NCBI GenBank assembly: GCA_016208975.1
Contig: JACQXA010000004.1
Span: 2,013,941-2,077,940 of the forward strand
Length of the DNA: 64,000 nt
Direction of reading: 5' to 3'
Origin: Nitrospinota bacterium
GTDB lineage: Bacteria; Nitrospinota_A; UBA7883; JACRLM01
Part shown: in pieces, positions 26,860 through 58,715 of the stretch
How the letters are laid out: every line of letters begins with the position of its first letter
How positions within the stretch are numbered: the first letter of the stretch is position 1
The notes under the pieces: model-generated
The model's input: only the letters and a program-made list of their open reading frames with translations
Database searches by the model: none
What the model was told of the DNA's origin: nothing
Program-made: the position numbers and the translations under genes

Positions 26860-27997
26860 TTAAATATCCTCCAACTCCTCCACCGCATCTTCCCCGGCCT
26901 TGGCGGGGCCTTTTAGAAGATACCCCTCGATGAATTCATCCAGCGCCCCGTCCAGCACGGCGTTGACGTTGCCGGTTTCTATCCTCGTCCGCAGGTCTTT
27001 TACCATCTGGTATGGTTGCAGTACATAAGAGCGGATCTGGGATCCCCACTGGATGCCTTTCTTCTCGCCGGTGATGCCGTCCAGCCTCTGCCTGCGTTTT
27101 TCCTCTTCGATGGCGAACAGCTTGCCTTTTAGCACTTTCAGCGCGTAGGCCTTGTTCTTGTGCTGGCTCCGCTCGTTCTGGCAGGCCACCACGATGCCGC
27201 TGGGGATGTGGGTAATGCGCACAGCCGAGTCGGTGGTGTTTACGCTCTGCCCCCCGGCGCCGGAGGAACGGTAAACGTCCACCCTTATTTCTTCTTCCTT
27301 TATCACCACCTCGATGTCGTCTTCTATATCCGGCGTTACGGACACGGAGGTGAAAGAGGTATGTCTGCGTTTGTTGGCGTCGAAAGGGGAGATGCGCACA
27401 AGCCTGTGCACCCCCGCCTCGGCTTTCATGTATCCATAGGCGTAGTCCCCCTGCACGATGAACGTGGCGGATTTAACGCCAGCCTCGTCTCCGGGGAGCA
27501 GGTCCACAATCTGTGTTTTGTATCCCCGCCTCTCGGCCCAGCGCAGGTACATGCGCATTAGCATCTCCGCCCAGTCCTGAGACTCGGTGCCTCCGGCGCC
27601 CGGATGGATTTCCACGATGGCGTTGTCCATGTCGTGCTCGCCGGAAAGCATTGCGGCGATCTCCACCTTTTCGGTTTCCTTGGCCAGCAGGCTCGCGTCT
27701 TTACAGGTTTCGGCGAAAAGCTCCGGCTCGGCCTGGGGATCCACGATCTGGGCGAACTCGTCCAGGTCAGCAAGCCGTTTGGACAAAGCGTTAAACCCGT
27801 CGAGGGTCCTGATGATCGCGGCGCGCTTTTTAAGGAAAGGCTGGGCGGCTTCGGGCTTGTCCCAAAAACCGGGTGAGGCTATTTTCTTGTCGAGCGAGGC
27901 CAGTTCGGCGGTTTTGGATTCTATGTCAAAGATGACCTCGGAGCCTGGTGAGTTTGGCCCGGGTCTGTTCCAATAATGCGGAAAAATCCTCGTTCAT
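26860..27997 (-). CDS. prfB: peptide chain release factor 2 with programmed +1 frameshift (frame-0: 27997..27929, 23 codons ending CTT TGA C; +1 frame: 27927..26860)
   Basis: MNEDFSALLEQTRAKLTRLRGHL-stop then DIESKTAELASLDKK.. joins ORF 26860..27786 (SGAGGQSVNTTDSAVRITH GGQ motif); GAGG SD-like element 4 nt before CTT. Confidence 0.93.
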
Positions 27998-28815
27998 TAC
28001 TTCCTCTTCGATTTAGCTTTTTTAACGGCTGGCTTGGCGGCTGGTTTCCGGGCCACGGTTTTTTTCGCCGGTTTGGCTTTTTTGGCCACGGGTTTAGCTT
28101 TTGGCGCCGTCTTGGCCTTCGCCTTTTTTGCGGCTGGCTTGGCGGCTTTTTTCACTGGCTTGACAGCCTTAACCGGTTTAGAGGCGGCGGGCTTTTTAGG
28201 CTCCGGAGTAACCTTGCCGCCGGTTTTGGCCAGCGTGGCCTTTTTTATGGTTTCGTTGGCTTCCACCAAATCCAGCACGTGTTGCCTGGCGGATTTTTTG
28301 ATGGATTCCTCAAGGACGTGGATCACCATTTTGCCTACTGGCGTGGCCACTCCAGGCACATCAGGTATGGGAGCGCCCTTGGATATATAACCTTTAAGCC
28401 GCTTGGCCACCTCATCCATGGTGTACAGCTCGGAGTCTTTATATTTGTAAAGGAGCTTTACATAATCCCGCTCCTTTAACTCCACATCCAACGATCCGTG
28501 GATGATGTTCTCCATTTTGGTTTCCGCGGGACGTTTGGGAAGCTTGTTTAAGATTTTTATAACTTCGTTGAAGTATTTGGTTTTGCTTGCGTCCAGATTA
28601 GCCCTGGGCGGGAAAATGTCTTGGGGTATCTTGGAGCTTATCTCAAAAGCGTAGTCATTTCCATTGATGTCACAGGGGCTAACTTCGTAAGTTATACCCT
28701 TGATTAAGAAACGGTTGTCCTTTTTAGGGGTGAATTTCCCCCGGAACTCGGCGCGAACCTGCTCCAGACTTTTATTGATATGCTCAAGAAAAAGCTGGTT
28801 TTTTACCTCACCCAT
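27997..28815 (-). CDS. uncharacterised globular domain (~190 aa) with C-terminal Lys/Ala/Pro-rich histone-H1-like tail; stop overlaps prfB start (TAATG)
   Basis: ...KKPAASKPVKAVKPVKKAAKPAAKKAKAKTAPKAKPVAKKAKPAKK tail; TTGACC-17-TATTCT promoter-like upstream. Confidence 0.8.
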   Translation of the reverse strand: MGEVKNQLFLEHINKSLEQVRAEFRGKFTPKKDNRFLIKGITYEVSPCDINGNDYAFEISSKIPQDIFPPRANLDASKTKYFNEVIKILNKLPKRPAETKMENIIHGSLDVELKERDYVKLLYKYKDSELYTMDEVAKRLKGYISKGAPIPDVPGVATPVGKMVIHVLEESIKKSARQHVLDLVEANETIKKATLAKTGGKVTPEPKKPAASKPVKAVKPVKKAAKPAAKKAKAKTAPKAKPVAKKAKPAKKTVARKPAAKPAVKKAKSKRK

Positions 28816-29021
28816 TTAATTCCGCGTAGAGTATGTTTGTGACTGTTAATAGTTGATTTTCAACAGCTATCACCTTGAAGAATAGCAGATGGCCCTACCA
28901 AGGTCAATCCTAAAACCCAGCGAAAATTCCAAATTCCGGTATAATTTAACGGTTTTTGGAAAACTTGTCGAAGGCCATAGTTAATGGCAATCATTACAAT
29001 TGATTGGCTGAAAGTTAGGGG

Positions 29022-29061
29022 CAAAAAAAAGGCGGTCTCGACGAGGAGTAGTCGAGACCGC
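29022..29061 (-). terminator. Rho-independent terminator (ggcggtctcgac-loop-gtcgagaccgcc + 8 U on minus strand)
   Basis: perfect 12-bp stem, 8-nt loop, followed (minus strand) by TTTTTTTT. Confidence 0.85.
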
Positions 29062-29166
29062 CAGGCCTTAAGTTAGCCGAAGAAGCCACTTCCAGAGTTT
29101 ATATCCCTCTGGCTACAGAGGCCCGCAAGAGGATGAGGCGTCCGTCTTACGGAGTGCCGGCTTGCC
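29022..29166 (-). ncRNA. candidate sigma-54-dependent small RNA (~145 nt)
   Basis: bounded by -24/-12 element (TGGCACG-N4-aTGC) and a 12-bp GC hairpin + U8 terminator; internal hairpins (ccagaggg..ctctgg, ccgtaagacgg); only an 18-codon ORF without SD. Confidence 0.45.
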
Positions 29167-29173
29167 ATACAAA

Positions 29174-29194
29174 ATTAGCATAAGCCGTGCCAAT
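29174..29194 (-). promoter_or_regulatory. sigma-54 (RpoN) -24/-12 promoter: ttGGCACGgcttaTGCtaat
   Basis: GG and GC separated by exactly 10 nt; 1 mismatch to TGGCACG-N4-TTGC consensus. Confidence 0.55.
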
Positions 29195-29356
29195 GTTGAT
29201 TCTTGCTATGATTGCCAATAAAAACAATGAGATAAGAAAAAATGCTATTCTCCTTTTCTTGGACAAATGTCTAGATAGAGTGCGGTGAATTTATTCAATC
29301 AACTTTGGTCTTTTGTAACCAACTGAATAATAATGGGTTTGTATATGCCACGAAAA

Positions 29357-29395
29357 CGTGGCGCCACTGCCCGGTGCGGTGAAATCGTGGCGCCA
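29357..29395. promoter_or_regulatory. two palindromic sites (cGTGGCGCCAc ... cGTGGCGCCA) 29 bp apart, ~180-215 bp upstream of the sigma-54 promoter: candidate enhancer (UAS) for a bEBP
   Basis: direct repeat of a self-complementary 8-10-mer at 29357-29366 and 29386-29395. Confidence 0.4.
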
Positions 29396-29490
29396 ATTGG
29401 ACTGAAAATCTTAAACATCAACTTTCCGGGCTTAATGTTTTGCCCTAACCCTTGGAATTTGATAAAATTCAACCCTGTTTTTCCCGCGCC

Positions 29491-29565
29491 GCCGGTGTAG
29501 CTCAGTGGTAGAGCAGCTGATTCGTAATCAGCAGGCCGTGAGTTCAATCCTCACCACCGGCTCCA
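29491..29565 (+). tRNA. tRNA-Thr (anticodon CGU)
   Basis: GCCGGTG acceptor, GCTCAGTGGTAGAGC D-arm, anticodon loop TTCGTAA, GTGAGTTCAATCCTCAC T-arm; TAAAAT -10 ~20 nt upstream. Confidence 0.92.
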
Positions 29566-42982: not shown

Positions 42983-43204
42983 ACCCTGATTATACATTCG
43001 CAACGAAACAAGCCGAAACCGCGCCGCTCAAAAAAAGGTGGTAACGTCCTACAAAAATTGGAGTTACGACTGTGAAAAAGAAACGAAAAATTCCACTTGC
43101 GTTTTAAACGCATTGAAACTACAATCCTTACCCGTTCAGTCATATTGGCACATCCATTGCTCAACAAACAGTCTAAATACCAGGGGATCATCCAGGAGGC
43201 TTAC

Positions 43205-43780
43205 ATGATGGAGGCTTTCCAGATTCCAGTGACCGCGGTGATTTCCATCATCGTCGGTTGTTCCGCGCTAGCGTTTACCTATTTCGATCCGGCGTTCCAC
43301 AGCGGCCGGACATCGCTTTACCACGTTGGCGATCATGATGTGCTTCACACCACCGAGGCTGAAAGGCTTTTCAACCGGCTTGTAAGCGATGAGAAACTGG
43401 CCTATGAACTGCTCCCCTTCGAAATGAAGCGGTGGTATGGTGACCGGGCCGGGGAGATAATGTTGCAGACTGTGGAACAGGCTTTGGTGGTAAACACGGC
43501 CAACCCCGAGATGTTCGACCGGTTACAAACTTTAAAAGGCATGGCGTTCTCGCTGATGGGCTCCCGAGAGCAAGCATTGACGGCTTATCGCGCCGCGGTG
43601 GACTTCAATCCGGGTAATGCAACCGCACGGGAGCGGCTGGACATTATTCAGGCGGAGCTGGACTCGGAGGCACAAGCCCTGGCGGCCCAGCAGGCGGCGG
43701 AATCAGGCGCTGTAACAGAGCAGGCCCAAGGCGAGGGCCCATTGAGCGCCTTGGCCGCCCCTGTGGGAAGCGCGGGCTAA
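43205..43780 (+). CDS. membrane-anchored TPR-like protein (start uncertain; ORF-track start 43097)
   Basis: one TM then helical repeat region. Confidence 0.5.
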   Translation: MMEAFQIPVTAVISIIVGCSALAFTYFDPAFHSGRTSLYHVGDHDVLHTTEAERLFNRLVSDEKLAYELLPFEMKRWYGDRAGEIMLQTVEQALVVNTANPEMFDRLQTLKGMAFSLMGSREQALTAYRAAVDFNPGNATARERLDIIQAELDSEAQALAAQQAAESGAVTEQAQGEGPLSALAAPVGSAG

Positions 43781-54230: not shown

Positions 54231-57143
54231 TTATTGCGCCCGTTGCGAGACAAAATCCAGATAAACCGCCCTTACTTTCGCCATGGTCTCCTTTACCTCC
54301 CCCAACAACCTTTCAGGCCCCACGCCGGGAAGAGCAACCATCCGCGCCAGCCGCCGCAACGCCGCAACATCCAGCGGGATCACATTTAACGCCTGTTCCC
54401 GGTCCATCCTCAAAGCGTCTTCCAGGGAGCGGTATAGGACATACGCTTTTTCCAGCTCCACGGTGTCTTGGGCGGAAATGATTTTGCGGGCTCTAGCCCT
54501 TGCCAGGGTGGACATGGTGAACGGCTCTTCCTTCTCCGGCGGGGAGCCCAGCGACGGTTCCTCCAGCGCCAGCCATTGCAGGATGAACTCTATTTCAATC
54601 AGCCCGCCCCGGCCGAACTTTATGTCCACCGCGCCAGTCCTCACCTTTTCGTCGGCTATGCGTTCCCGGATCTCGGCAATGCGGGCCGATTCCTGCGGGG
54701 TAAGGGGTGGGTGAGTTATAAACCTGTCCATCGTTTCCATCACCATGGCCCCCACAGCCTCATCTCCGGCGATGGGGCGGGCGCCCACCAGCGCCAGCCG
54801 TTCCCACGCGTCGGCTTTGCCGCCGTAATATTCTTCCGCCGCGTTGATGGAGGGCACAAGCTCTCCTTTCTCGCCATAGGGGCGCAGACGCATGTCCAGC
54901 GCGTATCCGGAACCGTATGGAGTATATGCCCCGCAAAGCCTGATAGCATGTTGAGTCAATAACGTTACCCCGGCCCTGTCCATTTCCCGGTCGTCCACGA
55001 ACACTATAAGGTCCATGTCCGACCCGTAGTTCATCTCCCGGCGGCCCAGTTTTCCCGCCGCCAGAACAGCCCAGCCCTTTTCGCCGCAACCGGTTTCAAA
55101 GGCCGCCAGGGAGAATGAGGCCTTCAAAAACTCCTCGGCAAGTTTTGTAAGACCCTCCATCAGCTCGAACCTGTCCGATAAGCCCAATAACCTGCGCAAA
55201 CCCAGCCGCAGGCTTTCGGCGGAGCGGAACATGTTCAGTGACGACATTTTGTTTTCGGCGGTTCCGCCGCCATCCAGCGCCGAGCGGAACTCCCCCCGGT
55301 AACGGAACCTGTCGGCGGGCCTTTCCAATGGGTCGGCCACCAGCATGCGGTCTAGAACATCGGGCTGGCGGATGAGTGTGGCCGTGAGCCGCTCCGATTG
55401 GGAGAAGATGGCCGACAGGAGTTTTATTATGGGTCTGGTCTCGTCCAGAAGCTCATATAGCATGTCGCGCCCGCCCCTTGCCTCCACGAAACGCTCGAAA
55501 CCCACAAGCACATGGTCGGGCCATGGGGTAGCCTGGGCTTCCCTTATTATCTCCGGCCCGAACCTGTCGAAAGCCAGCCTGCTCCTTTCAGACGGATGGG
55601 TGAAGGGTTTGCCGTTACGCAAGGTGTTCAGCGCCCGGGCCGATTCTTCAGGTTTGTCGAAGCTCAAGGAATCCAGCCATGCGGTGATGGTCTCAACATC
55701 ATCGGTGGGGGCCGGGAAAGAGTCCGCCGCCTTTTTTTCCTCTTCCTTCTTGAAAAACAAGTCAAAGATGTTCCGCACCCGTTTTTGGCGTTTTTTGGTC
55801 TCTTCCAATAGCGTGGCCGCCGGATCCTCAGAGTCAAAACCCATCAGCTTGCCAAGTACTTTGAGCCGCTCGGGGTATTCAGGCATGGAATGGGTCTGGA
55901 GCAACTGATGATACTGGATACGGTTCTCCAGCCGCCTGTAGAATAGATATGATTCCCTCAAGTCCCGGTGATGTGGAGCGGAGAGAAGCCCCAGGGTCCG
56001 GCACGCGTCCAGGGCTTTTAGCGTATTCTGCGTCCTCAGTTCCGGATAACGCGCCGCGTAAAGCAACTGCATGGCCTGGGTCACAAACTCTATCTCCCGG
56101 ATGCCGCCATGGCCGAGCTTTATGTTCCTTTCGGCGTTTCTTACCCCTTTTTTCGACTGAAGCTGAAGATCTATCTTGCCTTTCATGGCGGCGATTTCAT
56201 CTATGGCGCGCTGGTCCAGGTATTTCCTGTACATGAACGGGTAGAGCCTGCGGAGGGTCTCATCGCCCACTTGTTTTGAGCCGCCGCAAACCCGGGCCTT
56301 TAACAAGGCCTGGCGCTCCCATTGCTGGCCCCATGACTCGTAATAAACCTCCATGGCCCCTATGGAGTTTGTAATCTCCCCCCGGGTCCCTTCCGGGCGC
56401 AGGTCCAGGTCCACCCGGAAAACGGAGCCATCCTCGGTGGATTCCCCCAACAGCCTGGTCACCTCCCGCGCCACCATTACAAAATGCTGGTGGAGGGGCG
56501 TGATGGCGGAGCCATCCTCTTTGCCGGTGGTGGAGCCGTTGTTCGACGAATGTACATATATAAGATCCACGTCCGACGATATGTTCAACTCCTCACCGCC
56601 CAGCTTCCCCATGCCCAGGCAGGCGAATCTGGCCGGAAGCTCCTCTTTCCCCTCAAAAGGGGTATAAAAAGGCTGGCCATGAAGCTTAAGAAACTTCGTT
56701 TCGGCGATTGTTATGGCGGTGTCTATGGCGATGTCGGCCACGGTGGACCATTCGGCCAGCGCCTCGGTGACTTCGCACAGGCCCGCCAGTTCCCGGGCGG
56801 CGATGCGGGCCAGTTCCCGGTGCTTGAACCTTCGCAGGGCGGGCATTGGCTCCATTGCCGTCAGTAGCATTTCGATATGCCCCTGCATGGATTCTTTGCC
56901 TCGTGACGAAAGCAGAATCTCCCCGGTGGTGAGCCAGTCCAGGTCATTGGGCCGGGCAAGGATGTAGTTGGTAAGGTAATCGCTTCCGGCGAACAACCCG
57001 GCCAGCGGAGTGAAAATTTCCGGGAAGGAGGCCAGTTGGGGCCTTGTTTCAAAAAGCCGGTTGAACCCGGAGGCCACGGTGTCCGGATCGGCTGATGATA
57101 GGACGATTTCTTCCGGTGTCATAATCAGGATTCGCCGAGCCAA
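54231..57143 (-). CDS. glnE: bifunctional glutamine synthetase adenylyltransferase/adenylyl-removing enzyme
   Basis: two nucleotidyltransferase domains, 970 aa. Confidence 0.92.
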   Translation of the reverse strand: MARRILIMTPEEIVLSSADPDTVASGFNRLFETRPQLASFPEIFTPLAGLFAGSDYLTNYILARPNDLDWLTTGEILLSSRGKESMQGHIEMLLTAMEPMPALRRFKHRELARIAARELAGLCEVTEALAEWSTVADIAIDTAITIAETKFLKLHGQPFYTPFEGKEELPARFACLGMGKLGGEELNISSDVDLIYVHSSNNGSTTGKEDGSAITPLHQHFVMVAREVTRLLGESTEDGSVFRVDLDLRPEGTRGEITNSIGAMEVYYESWGQQWERQALLKARVCGGSKQVGDETLRRLYPFMYRKYLDQRAIDEIAAMKGKIDLQLQSKKGVRNAERNIKLGHGGIREIEFVTQAMQLLYAARYPELRTQNTLKALDACRTLGLLSAPHHRDLRESYLFYRRLENRIQYHQLLQTHSMPEYPERLKVLGKLMGFDSEDPAATLLEETKKRQKRVRNIFDLFFKKEEEKKAADSFPAPTDDVETITAWLDSLSFDKPEESARALNTLRNGKPFTHPSERSRLAFDRFGPEIIREAQATPWPDHVLVGFERFVEARGGRDMLYELLDETRPIIKLLSAIFSQSERLTATLIRQPDVLDRMLVADPLERPADRFRYRGEFRSALDGGGTAENKMSSLNMFRSAESLRLGLRRLLGLSDRFELMEGLTKLAEEFLKASFSLAAFETGCGEKGWAVLAAGKLGRREMNYGSDMDLIVFVDDREMDRAGVTLLTQHAIRLCGAYTPYGSGYALDMRLRPYGEKGELVPSINAAEEYYGGKADAWERLALVGARPIAGDEAVGAMVMETMDRFITHPPLTPQESARIAEIRERIADEKVRTGAVDIKFGRGGLIEIEFILQWLALEEPSLGSPPEKEEPFTMSTLARARARKIISAQDTVELEKAYVLYRSLEDALRMDREQALNVIPLDVAALRRLARMVALPGVGPERLLGEVKETMAKVRAVYLDFVSQRAQ

Positions 57144-57189: not shown

Positions 57190-58608
57190 TCACTCCTCGG
57201 CCTTGATATGGTATTCCCCGATCTTTTTCATAAGCGTGTTCCGGTTCACGCCCAAAAGCTTTGCCGCGTGGGTCTGCACGCCATCGGCCTTCTTTAGCGC
57301 GTGTTCTATAAGCGTCTTCTCCACAAGGCTTATCACGGTGTCGTAAACCTGGCCTTCCGGGGCGGATTCCATAAGTTCCATGGTGAGCCGCGAAAGGCTC
57401 TCTTCCGGTTTCCTGCCATCCTTGGCGCCGGTGATCTCCGGCGGCAGGTCTTCCACGGTGATGGTGTCTCCGGGGGCCATCAGGGCGCCCCGGCGGATGA
57501 CGTTTTCAAGCTCCCTCACGTTTCCGGGCCAGTTGTAGCGCGTAAGGGCATCCATGGCCGCCGGGGCCAGCATCTTCTGTTTTTCGTTAAAGGTGCGGGC
57601 TATCTTGGACAAAAAATGCCTGGCCAGCGCCGGTATGTCCGGTAGCCGCTCAGACAGGGGAGGCAGGGCTATCCGCACAACGTTGAGACGGTGGTACAGG
57701 TCTTCACGGAACTTCCCCTCGGCCACTTCCGTGGCCAGGTTCCTGTTGGTGGAGGCTATCACCCTTACATCTATTTTTACGGGGCGCGTGGCGCCTACCG
57801 GGTAAAACTCCCGCTCCTGCAGTACCCGTAGCATCTTGGCCTGGAGAGACAGGGGCATCTCCCCCACCTCGTCCAGCAGGATGGCCCCGCCGTTTGCGGC
57901 CAGGAATTTCCCTTTTTGATCTTCCACCGCGCCGGTGAATGCCCCTTTAACATGGCCGAAAAGCTCCGACTCCAGAAGGTCGTGAGGGATGGCCGCGCAG
58001 TTTACCGTGATGAACGGCTCCCGCGCCCGGGCCGAGTTTTGATGGAGCGCCCTGGCCACCAGTTCCTTACCGGAGCCGGTGGGGCCGGTGATTAATACCG
58101 TGGCGTCGGAATTGGCCGCCCGGCCGATAAGCTTGAACACGTCCTGCATGGAAGGAGCCCGGCCGATTATTTCGTCCGGCGACGATTTTACCGGCTCCGC
58201 GGACTTTAGCTGGGCCAGCTCCCCGGCCATTTTGCGATACTCGCCCACCCTCTGGGCCAGCAGGGCAACCTCGTTCAGGTCGAAAGGTTTCGTCAAGTAA
58301 TCGAACGCCCCTTTCTGCATGGCCTCTATGGCGTTTTTCATGGTGGCCTCGGCGGTCATCACCACCACAGACGGGGCGTTGGGCCGCCGCTTGATGCTCT
58401 CCAGCAGGTCCAACCCCGAGCCGTCTGGCATCATAATGTCCACAAAGGCCAGGAAATAGGGATATTCGTTGAGAAATTCACCGGCTTCGGCCACGGTGGA
58501 GGCGGCGTCCACCACGTATCCTTTGCGGGTCAACCCACGGGAAAGCACGAAACGCAGACTGCTTTCGTCGTCCACCACCAGTATCCGGTTAAACTTTTCT
58601 TCAGCCAT
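57190..58608 (-). CDS. sigma-54-dependent response regulator (NtrC family: REC + AAA+ sigma54 activation + Fis HTH)
   Basis: start MAEEKFNRILVVDDE at 58608; GPTGSGKE Walker A, GAFTGA-type loop, ESELFGH, C-terminal HTH. Confidence 0.9.
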   Translation of the reverse strand: MAEEKFNRILVVDDESSLRFVLSRGLTRKGYVVDAASTVAEAGEFLNEYPYFLAFVDIMMPDGSGLDLLESIKRRPNAPSVVVMTAEATMKNAIEAMQKGAFDYLTKPFDLNEVALLAQRVGEYRKMAGELAQLKSAEPVKSSPDEIIGRAPSMQDVFKLIGRAANSDATVLITGPTGSGKELVARALHQNSARAREPFITVNCAAIPHDLLESELFGHVKGAFTGAVEDQKGKFLAANGGAILLDEVGEMPLSLQAKMLRVLQEREFYPVGATRPVKIDVRVIASTNRNLATEVAEGKFREDLYHRLNVVRIALPPLSERLPDIPALARHFLSKIARTFNEKQKMLAPAAMDALTRYNWPGNVRELENVIRRGALMAPGDTITVEDLPPEITGAKDGRKPEESLSRLTMELMESAPEGQVYDTVISLVEKTLIEHALKKADGVQTHAAKLLGVNRNTLMKKIGEYHIKAEE

Positions 58609-58715
58609 AATCAAAAAGGTACAGGTTTCCAACTGTAAAATCAATTCCGTTAACATAACGGATAAGGTAGGATTTATGCCTTGGACAATCGTTAGTGTAG
58701 AGGTCATAACGCCAG

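Follow-up and report, generated by a model that had tools for sequence, protein, structure and literature searches.

A 380-bp stretch in an uncultured Nitrospinota genome probably contains an independent gene for a trans-acting small RNA (sRNA) of about 145 nt, which, judged from its sequence, would be activated by an enhancer-binding protein (bEBP) together with sigma-54, would repress translation through anti-Shine-Dalgarno loops, and belongs to one clade of Nitrospinota. The initial annotation had proposed an unannotated, enhancer-dependent sigma-54 sRNA gene at this place, and comparison with homologues supports this core claim. As far as sequence can tell, the gene also withstood the refuting conditions that the initial annotation had named. 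Homologues keep the promoter element (-24/-12) as well as the paired upstream sites, the hairpins and the terminator, and every element is backed by conservation and covariation across 21 loci. Within the window, by which we mean the whole 64-kb stretch of DNA analysed, the locus and its neighbourhood comprise the following features.

29022-29400, minus strand: the flagged sRNA gene region of 380 bp, with enhancer, sigma-54 promoter, RNA and terminator.
29374..29393, minus strand: upstream activator site 1, GCGCCACGATTTCACCGCAC, left half-site perfect, right half degenerate.
29345..29364, minus strand: upstream activator site 2, GCGCCACGTTTTCGTGGCAT, agreeing with the palindrome GCGCCACG-N4-CGTGGCGC at 14 of 16 positions.
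29193..29344, minus strand: AT-rich spacer (32% GC) from enhancer to promoter, conserved in length and not in sequence.
29177..29192, minus strand: sigma-54-type -24/-12 element, TGGCACGGCTTATGCT / TGGCACGgcttATGCT, one mismatch to TGGCACG-N4-TTGCW.
29023..29166, minus strand: predicted sRNA of about 144 nt, its 5' end placed 11-12 nt past the -12 GC (+/-3 nt).
29123..29152, minus strand: hairpin H1, with the apical loop CGCCUCA (29140..29134) exposing an anti-Shine-Dalgarno-like CCUC.
29092..29112, minus strand: hairpin H2, a variable middle hairpin of the predicted fold.
29065..29078, minus strand: single-stranded linker GGCUAACUUAAGGC, just upstream of the terminator.
29023..29062, minus strand: intrinsic terminator, a 12-bp stem (29062..29031) with the CUCCUC-containing loop UACUCCUC, then U8.
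28879..28907, minus strand: sigma-70-type promoter of the downstream operon, TTGACC-N17-TATTCT, given as context and lying outside the RNA gene.
29491..29565, plus strand: tRNA-Thr(CGT), neighbour of the sRNA locus.

The setting was as first described, with tRNA-Thr on one side and, downstream of the sRNA, a gene for a 272-aa protein followed by prfB. We found the sRNA unit in 21 distinct loci (window included), all from uncultured Nitrospinota, and in each it precedes the 272-aa gene and prfB on the same strand. The 20 other loci came from 12 GTDB genome bins, two further metagenome contigs, and six contigs reached via protein homologues; a contig search with the single 272-aa protein gave no matches, and an alignment of homologues was needed as query. 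Groundwater and hydrothermal sediments are the kinds of site from which the bins derive. A DNA-pattern scan of metagenomes returned 49 stretches, 45 of them chance matches and four true family members, and the promoter was at the correct distance in 4/4 of the latter versus 0/45 of the former. Counts for the terminator loop and the promoter refer to all 21 loci, and many of the other family counts refer to an aligned or examined subset of 18 members. The tRNA-Thr gene is missing or displaced in several family loci. Structure comparison of the 272-aa protein gave weak fold matches only, and a literature search retrieved no sRNA report for Nitrospina, Nitrospinae or Nitrospinota.

The near-consensus RpoN element noted initially, with GG at -24 and GC at -12 spaced 10 nt apart, was confirmed at 29192..29177. 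Its register is kept in all 21 loci as TGGC-N8-TGC. These columns alone are conserved, with a spacing that does not change, and both the intervening and the surrounding bases are free to vary. Loci L003 and L135 have TTGTA instead of TTGC at the -12 position (GT for GC). The window contains two consensus-like -24/-12 matches versus 0.62 expected by chance. A single promoter match is thus only weakly significant by itself; the weight rests on conservation. A further near-consensus promoter, at 43146, precedes a protein-coding gene and, along with the one bEBP gene in the window, suggests that this genome uses sigma-54. The rpoN gene is absent from the 64-kb window.

Further upstream, two self-complementary sites 29 bp apart had been reported on the minus strand (29357-29395). 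Both are present as placed, TTGGCGCCAC at 29396..29387 and GTGGCGCCAC at 29367..29358, although the actual units are longer, measuring 20 bp each (29393..29374 and 29364..29345). The family consensus of the 20-bp site is GCGCCACG-N4-CGTGGCGC, with two copies per locus. On the plus strand site 2 reads ATGCCACGAAAACGTGGCGC, two mismatches away from the palindrome GCGCCAC-N6-GTGGCGC. The 29-bp spacing recurs in 13 of the 18 aligned loci, which are those with both half-sites matched by the scan. Measured from the T of TGGC, the site 1 half-site GCGCYAC is located at -201 to -203 in 11 of 18 aligned loci and at -187/-189 in L012-14, and the site 2 half-site at -170 to -178 (-158/-160 in L012-14). 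A palindrome-matching site at the same offset is present in 18/18 aligned loci, and L135-137 have a similar module. The enhancer-promoter distance is nearly constant, at about 160-205 bp, while the spacer sequence drifts, and it does not depend on the neighbouring tRNA-Thr. At least two inverted-repeat sites, conserved in position and located at least 80-100 bp upstream of the promoter, is the arrangement of a bEBP enhancer. No further enhancer-like 20-bp site was found elsewhere in the 64-kb window, in which GGCGCCAC occurs eight times versus 4.6 expected. IHF-consensus sites are present in the spacer of 8 of 18 loci (nine matches versus 0.42 expected); the spacer of the window copy has none.

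This layout suggests that the RNA is made and that sigma-54 and a bEBP drive its transcription. A dimeric or oligomeric bEBP would bind the two palindromes about 170-200 bp upstream, the AT-rich spacer would loop so that the bEBP meets sigma-54 holoenzyme on TGGCACG-N4-ATGCT, and ATP hydrolysis would then open the promoter. It is very improbable that the motifs came together by chance or represent a decaying remnant without function. Although the counts of promoter and GGCGCCAC matches in the window alone, given above, leave some room for coincidence, conservation extends to all four modules together, with compensatory changes and constant spacings, between loci whose flanking protein is just 42-63% identical.

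As a possible activator, the initial annotation had pointed to a local NtrC-family protein, and the NtrC-family regulator gene at 57190..58707(-), beside glnE and encoding REC, Sigma54_activat and HTH_8 domains, is the sole bEBP gene in the window. However, it is 28 kb from the sRNA and nothing links the two: 20/21 loci have no bEBP gene syntenic with the sRNA, and a search for a linked activator found none within 3 kb in 17 loci and none within 10 kb in three. The single neighbouring bEBP, in L131, was rejected as the family activator: L133 and L134, which are closely related to L131, lack it, and its identity to the window bEBP is only 38%. We also rejected a resemblance of the upstream sites to NtrC sites, as their half-site spacing departs from the NtrC consensus.

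Downstream of the promoter, the initial annotation had described a segment of about 145 nt with several hairpins and no ORF above 18 codons. Its hairpins and non-coding character were borne out, but the ORF limit was wrong, as the longest internal ORF has 31 codons, running from an ATG at 29168 to a stop codon ending at 29073. That the locus is a small-protein gene for this product is extremely unlikely. The ORF is ATG-initiated in the window copy, but when 18 members are compared, the longest ORF varies in its position, frame and start codon as well as in its peptide. L006 lacks any ORF, and the lengths of the members differ by non-multiples of three. A conserved small ORF, which the initial annotation had said would speak against an RNA gene, was absent from these 18 members.

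The structured stretch (29168..29022) has a predicted folding energy of -62.6 kcal/mol (z = -4.7). Much of this stability in the window copy is due to the terminator, and the body without it scores z = -0.8, no better than shuffles; across the family the body without terminator has a mean z of -2.6, with 13 of 18 members below -2. Homologous RNAs of 115-160 nt are present at the same position in the 20 other loci. The H1 loop of the window copy has an unpaired probability of 0.91, and all 18 members tested have a 5' hairpin of 6-19 bp with a C/U-rich loop, on stems that are unrelated between subclades. This loop contains CCUC in 15 of 18 members, the exceptions being L003, L009 and L103, and no clear C-rich 5' loop is evident in L136. 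In other members the H2 loop has a C-rich motif as well. This is GCCUC in L002 and its relatives L131, L133 and L134, whereas L008 and L012-14 have CCCCCC or CCCCACC. A third hairpin, H3, is not universal (68.6% of cells paired). The 5' half of the RNA resisted alignment with MAFFT, and therefore column-wise covariation for H1 comes from one subclade only, that of L002, within which both H1 and H2 have compensatory pairs. RNAalifold proposed a pairing of GCCU in the H1 loop with AGGC in the linker. We rejected it, since these segments show no family-wide covariation, as L008 and L010 illustrate.

The perfect 12-bp hairpin and eight U noted initially were found at 29062..29031, followed by T8. 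Across the family the stem is 96.7-97.7% paired, and 8 of its 12 pairs have compensatory double changes. This covariation score was reached by 0/500 shuffles, and it collapses in slid registers. The terminator loop is CUCCUC in 20/21 members and UCCCUC in L134, and the U-tract has 6-9 U. This strong intrinsic terminator would end the transcript. The linker in front of it, with the family consensus YCGGAUAACUUAAGGC, holds the best-conserved columns of the RNA apart from the terminator loop; conceivably, it could serve as an Hfq site, an RNase site or a second seed.

The RNA is non-coding, has its own predicted promoter and a covarying terminator, and exposes CCUC or CUCCUC loops, the features of a trans-acting sRNA. 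The loops point to a mode of action by anti-Shine-Dalgarno pairing. Two or three hairpin loops would expose CCUC or CUCCUC, the anti-Shine-Dalgarno sequence of 16S rRNA, and could base-pair with target mRNAs at ribosome-binding sites of the GGAGG type, which would block the initiation of translation. Together, the A/U-rich linker and the U-tail may attract an RNA chaperone, for example Hfq. Sequence features of the Hfq type (UAACUUAA, a hairpin and the U-tract) are present, and hfq is absent from the 64-kb window.

A conserved RNA directly upstream of one operon could instead be its leader, in which case transcription of the 272-aa gene and prfB would start from the sigma-54 promoter, with the structured RNA and the terminator serving as a conditional attenuator or a riboswitch. 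The same strand and strict synteny in 21/21 loci leave room for this, and some read-through of the terminator is possible, yet we regard such a cis-acting role as unlikely. A sigma-70 promoter of the form TTGACC-N17-TATNCT follows the terminator and precedes the start codon in 13/13 loci of one comparison and in every further locus inspected; with a conserved promoter of its own, the downstream gene does not appear to use the RNA as its leader. The spacer from terminator to ATG varies from 145 to 320 nt and has no conserved structure. With its 12-bp stem and 6-9 U the terminator is a very strong one, and no conserved anti-terminator pairing appears in the consensus folds. We found neither the shared promoter nor the mutually exclusive folds of a riboswitch or attenuator leader. 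Moreover, the gene pair occurs without the element in the rest of Nitrospinota and in Tectomicrobia.

A search of Rfam 15, including the families Qrr, GlmY/GlmZ and RsaE, found no family and no riboswitch at gathering score on the RNA; only tRNA passed in the window and 17 relatives. The alpha-proteobacterial model ar7 (RF02342) scored 20.5 bits on the window copy versus a gathering score of 60, and a screen of the RNA from 12 relatives at E <= 10 showed no recurrent Rfam family, ar7 included. Membership in ar7 was rejected on both counts.

We looked for mRNA targets and found no signal in the neighbouring gene or the 64-kb window. Duplex energies with the initiation region of the neighbouring gene were at chance level, an 8-bp match between the window H1 loop and the first three codons of this gene was dismissed as it is lost in relatives, and sites complementary to the linker were not enriched in the window. 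The result would also fit a protein-binding or decoy RNA, whose loops and linker titrate an RNA-binding protein or sponge another RNA, and so would the most invariant stretch, the linker, which is not an anti-Shine-Dalgarno sequence. GlmY provides a precedent for a sigma-54-dependent decoy sRNA (excerpt of PMC7073468). We nevertheless consider a decoy doubtful: the exposed-loop element that stays unchanged is CUCCUC, which resembles 16S rRNA, and there are only one or two GGA motifs, outside the loops and not in all members, which makes the RNA unlike CsrB or RsmZ. Another reading, suggested by the two to three exposed anti-Shine-Dalgarno copies, keeps the pairing and drops specific targets. 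Gated by a signal, the RNA would compete generally for Shine-Dalgarno sites and, as a mimic of the ribosome, broadly damp translation initiation when the bEBP fires; we give this little credence. In a variant suggested by the fixed place before prfB, the RNA could tune the Shine-Dalgarno-dependent +1 frameshift that sets RF2 levels.

Nitrospinota is a mostly uncultured phylum that includes the main marine nitrite oxidisers. To our knowledge, sigma-54-dependent sRNAs are few and the known ones come from Proteobacteria, Campylobacterota and Myxococcota, and the RNA described here, if it is the enhancer-dependent trans-acting sRNA that we favour, would be the first family of regulatory RNAs to be defined in this phylum. 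The locus would then represent a complete conserved cis-regulatory module. Its twofold enhancer motif (GCGCCACG-N4-CGTGGCGC) offers a precise probe with which to find the matching enhancer-binding protein and the regulon of that protein, and an RNA covariance model made from the family could serve metagenome annotation.

Related systems include Qrr1-5 of Vibrio, which depend on LuxO and sigma-54 and are also stand-alone sRNA genes with a -24/-12 element, upstream bEBP sites and an intrinsic terminator. Qrr RNAs base-pair with mRNAs, as the Nitrospinota RNA presumably does. However, qrr1 adjoins luxO, whereas the Nitrospinota RNA has no linked bEBP gene, and the LuxO site is TTGCA-N3-TGCAA, a different upstream motif. 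The two are from different phyla and have no sequence or Rfam similarity, and the presumed seed in Nitrospinota is an anti-Shine-Dalgarno sequence in hairpin loops, unlike in Qrr. Transcription of qrr1 is bEBP-activated and sigma-54-dependent (excerpt of PMC10162802). GlmY and GlmZ of Enterobacteria, under GlrR/QseF, are similar in being sigma-54-dependent with tandem activator sites well upstream (described in part in PMC7073468). GlmY serves as a decoy for the protein RapZ and GlmZ as an activator of one mRNA, and neither matches the Nitrospinota RNA in sequence or structure. NrsZ of Pseudomonas aeruginosa is likewise an sRNA induced via a two-component bEBP (NtrBC) and sigma-54 (excerpt of PMC4253122). 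NrsZ, however, is a processed RNA of repeated modules tied to nitrogen limitation, and the Nitrospinota upstream sites do not fit NtrC spacing.

For the presumed effector part, RsaE/RoxS of Firmicutes have several C-rich loop motifs that target Shine-Dalgarno regions. They differ in their sigma-A promoters under ResD, SrrA or Rex, in their fold, and in giving no Rfam match here. Alpha-r14/NfeR1 (and AbcR) of alpha-rhizobia also have several hairpins that expose C/U-rich anti-Shine-Dalgarno sequences on divergent stems, and NfeR1 silences mRNAs by occlusion of the ribosome-binding site (excerpt of PMC10746234). The NfeR1 motif is CCUCCUCCC, as opposed to CCUC(C/A)UC or CUCCUC in the Nitrospinota RNA, and in the same excerpt NfeR1 is activated by LsrB and repressed by NtrC, with no sigma-54 promoter described there. 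If our reading is correct, two designs would once more have recurred independently, the sRNA gene under an enhancer and sigma-54 and the effector with several anti-Shine-Dalgarno loops, and no new principle would be involved.

The initial annotation had proposed an unannotated sigma-54-dependent small RNA gene, and all the elements that it listed are present on the minus strand, flanked by tRNA-Thr(CGT) and a gene for a 272-aa protein:

29491..29565, plus strand: tRNA-Thr(CGT), one flank of the RNA locus
29394..29387 and 29365..29358, minus strand: two GGCGCCAC cores with a spacing of 29 bp, upstream activator sites
29192..29177, minus strand: TGGCACGGCTTATGCT, -24/-12 promoter element
29062..29023, minus strand: 12-bp hairpin and T8, terminator
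28879..28907, minus strand: TTGACC-N17-TATTCT, sigma-70 promoter of the 272-aa/prfB operon, strongly conserved at the same position in family loci
28815..27997, minus strand: 272-aa gene, other flank of the RNA locus

The segment between the promoter and the terminator hairpin is GC-richer, and the 147-nt stretch starting at 29168 has a folding energy of -62.6 kcal/mol (z = -4.7). A GIY-YIG gene and the tRNA-Thr are the neighbours on the upstream side. The label "prfB operon" for the other side was correct, because prfB starts within the overlap of its first codon with the stop of the 272-aa gene (TAATG); prfB carries a programmed +1 frameshift site of the classic type (CGAGGTCATCTTTGAC, internal SD-like GAGG). 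Both features lie in 27925..27999 on the minus strand. The 272-aa protein has no Pfam domain and is 100% identical to the hypothetical protein HY751_13475 from a Nitrospinae metagenome-assembled genome; the 115 homologues found all belong to Nitrospinae, Nitrospina or related bins. By itself, the window copy of the RNA locus is a real observation that is only mildly improbable.

Using an alignment of the 272-aa homologues as a query, we collected 80 loci from GTDB species representatives and searched for RNA homologues with nhmmer (with the window's RNA as query) and simple pattern scans. An RNA homologue lies on the same strand, 145-320 nt upstream of the 272-aa gene, in 12 of the 13 loci with the protein closest to the window's (L002-L014). 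The sequence of the one exception, L005, begins only 431 nt ahead of the 272-aa homologue; L005:1-431 contains the sigma-70 promoter and the contig stops short of the RNA region, so that this locus counts neither for nor against the RNA. In the other 67 loci, from more distant Nitrospinota, Nitrospina and Tectomicrobia, no RNA homologue was found. A covariance model of the RNA 3' module confirmed this distribution, with one copy per family locus (47-92 bits) and no further match in the 64-kb window or in L015-L081. Scanning JGI metagenomes for the exact pattern gave 49 stretches, 45 of them chance matches (≤25 bits) and four real, of which L103 and L113 were new and L110 and L128 were the same as L014 and L013. 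Contigs that encode homologues of the protein added six members (L131, L133, L134, L135, L136 and L137), bringing the total to 21 distinct loci, every one from Nitrospinota.

The window promoter has one mismatch to TGGCACG-N4-TTGCW, and there are two such matches in the window versus 0.62 expected. In an alignment of 18 loci anchored at the -24 element, strong conservation was limited to TGGC and TGC with exactly 8 bases between them, and the intervening and flanking bases were variable. L135, L136 and L137 follow the same pattern; the -12 element is TTGTA in L003 and L135, and the -24 element is CGGCAC in L131. A -24/-12 element was present at the right distance in all four true metagenome matches and in none of the 45 chance matches. 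Since conservation is confined to TGGC/TGC at fixed spacing and the element separates true from chance matches, the pattern, as read from the alignment, indicates that selection acts on a sigma-54 promoter and not on neighbouring sequence. The second near-consensus promoter of the window (TGGCACATCCATTGCT, 43146..43161, plus strand) sits 44 nt before a Shine-Dalgarno sequence (CCAGGAGG) and the ATG of an ORF (43205..43780; 191 aa, without Pfam domain) that is followed by a rhodanese/metallo-beta-lactamase gene; upstream of this promoter there is no GCGCCAC-type enhancer.

An enhancer module of ~55 bp is present in every locus. It contains two 20-bp sites that both match GCGCCACG-N4-CGTGGCGC at 8-14 of 16 positions; the clearest are in L010 (GCGCCACATTTTCGTAGCGC), L008 (ACGCTACGTTTACGTAGCGC) and site 2 of the window (GCGCCACGTTTTCGTGGCAT). 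The 10-bp palindromes originally described are thus present, as the left halves of these sites and not as whole sites. A scan matched both half-sites in 13 of 18 aligned loci, with a constant spacing of 29 bp. Relative to the T of TGGC, they start at -201..-203 and -172..-174 in ten of these loci and at -187/-189 and -158/-160 in L012-L014. The predicted enhancer module belongs to the RNA gene and not to the tRNA, since its distance to the promoter is kept with or without tRNA-Thr as upstream neighbour. No second site of this type occurs in the 64-kb window. The 150-bp spacer between enhancer and promoter has a high AT content and no sequence conservation. IHF-consensus sites (WATCAR-N4-TTR) are found in the spacers of 8 of 18 loci (L003, L004, L009, L010, L011, L113, L131 and L133; 9 matches versus 0.42 expected), clustered either directly upstream of -24 or beside the enhancer; the window copy's spacer has none.

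The RNA is 115-160 nt long across the family. Its terminator stem is paired at 97.7% in an unbiased MAFFT alignment and 96.7% in a model-based alignment of 18 members, with compensatory double changes at 8 of 12 pairs; none of 500 shuffles reached its covariation score, and sliding the register drops pairing to 33-55%. The terminator loop reads CUCCUC in 20 of 21 members (UCCCUC in L134). All 18 members examined form a 5' hairpin (6-19 bp) whose apical loop is C/U-rich, and in 15 of them the loop contains CCUC, often as GCCUCCUCA; L003, L009 and L103 have CCUU, UCUC and ACUC, respectively. A clear C-rich 5' loop is not evident in L136. The 5' stems show no sequence relation between subclades, with compensatory changes within the L002 subclade. 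The middle hairpin is variable and presents a third C-rich loop in several members (GCCUC in L002 and relatives, CCCCCC or CCCCACC in L008 and L012-14). About two thirds of the members have a third small hairpin (UUCGGAU/AUCCGGA), and the linker YCGGAUAACUUAAGGC ahead of the terminator hardly varies. When the terminator is left out, folding z averages -2.6 (below -2 in 13 of 18 members; only -0.8 for the window copy). The window copy contains a 31-codon ATG ORF, where the initial annotation had allowed only 18 codons. This ORF is of no consequence; frame, position and peptide of such ORFs differ among members, and L006 has none.

At gathering thresholds, Rfam 15 detected only tRNAs in the window and 17 relatives, and the RNA family is absent from this release. 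With relaxed thresholds, the window copy matched ar7 at 20.5 bits (gathering score 60; E = 0.083), a family identity that we rejected as the match does not recur in 12 relatives. A literature search found no paper on sRNAs of Nitrospina, Nitrospinae or Nitrospinota. Could the RNA be a leader of the downstream operon? A sigma-70 promoter, TTGACC-N17-TAT(T/G/C)CT, lies between the RNA terminator and the 272-aa gene in 13 of 13 loci compared and in further loci inspected. Since it is conserved after the terminator, the 272-aa/prfB operon is predicted to have its own promoter and the RNA to be a separate unit. In 16 loci, duplexes of the RNA with the initiation region of the 272-aa gene had chance-level energies.

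The sole enhancer-binding protein (bEBP) of the window (57190..58707, minus strand; REC, Sigma54_activat and HTH_8 domains) and the promoter at 43146(+) suggest that the organism uses sigma-54. This orphan NtrC-type regulator lies directly upstream of glnE (54231..57143, minus strand) on the same strand, with no adjoining histidine kinase gene. It had been hinted to be the activator, and nothing ties it to the RNA. For 17 loci the surrounding 3 kb, and for three loci the surrounding 10 kb, contain no bEBP gene. Only in L131 does a PAS-PAS bEBP gene (L131:1-792, plus strand) end ~700 bp upstream of the enhancer. This gene may point to the activator, but L133 and L134, which are closely related to L131, do not have it at this position, and its product shares only 38% identity with the regulator of the window. 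In L131, a small Gly-zipper lipoprotein gene separates the bEBP gene from the enhancer. The NtrC half-site is GCACCA. The enhancer half-site GCGCCA resembles it, but the distance between half-sites is off by roughly half a helical turn, and we therefore do not call the enhancer an NtrC site.

Hence, the comparative data back a predicted sRNA gene, in which enhancer, -24/-12 promoter, structured non-coding body and terminator are co-conserved at the sequence level, and not its tie to the local NtrC-like gene. This is a well-defined, experiment-ready predicted locus in a poorly studied phylum; it involves no new principle. A bEBP would bind both palindromes and loop to the sigma-54 holoenzyme, switching on the ~145-nt RNA. 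The CCUC and CUCCUC loops match the 16S anti-Shine-Dalgarno sequence and, being exposed, could repress translation by pairing with ribosome-binding sites; a chaperone may bind the A/U-rich linker and the U-tail. The proposed transcriptional design is shared with Qrr (PMC10162802), GlmY/GlmZ (PMC7073468) and NrsZ (PMC4253122). The proposed effector design is that of the alpha-r14/NfeR1 family, described as having several hairpins, anti-SD motifs in loops and divergent stems (PMC10746234). Campylobacter CJnc230 is also RpoN-dependent and carries an anti-SD, but differs in being processed from an mRNA (PMC11187230).
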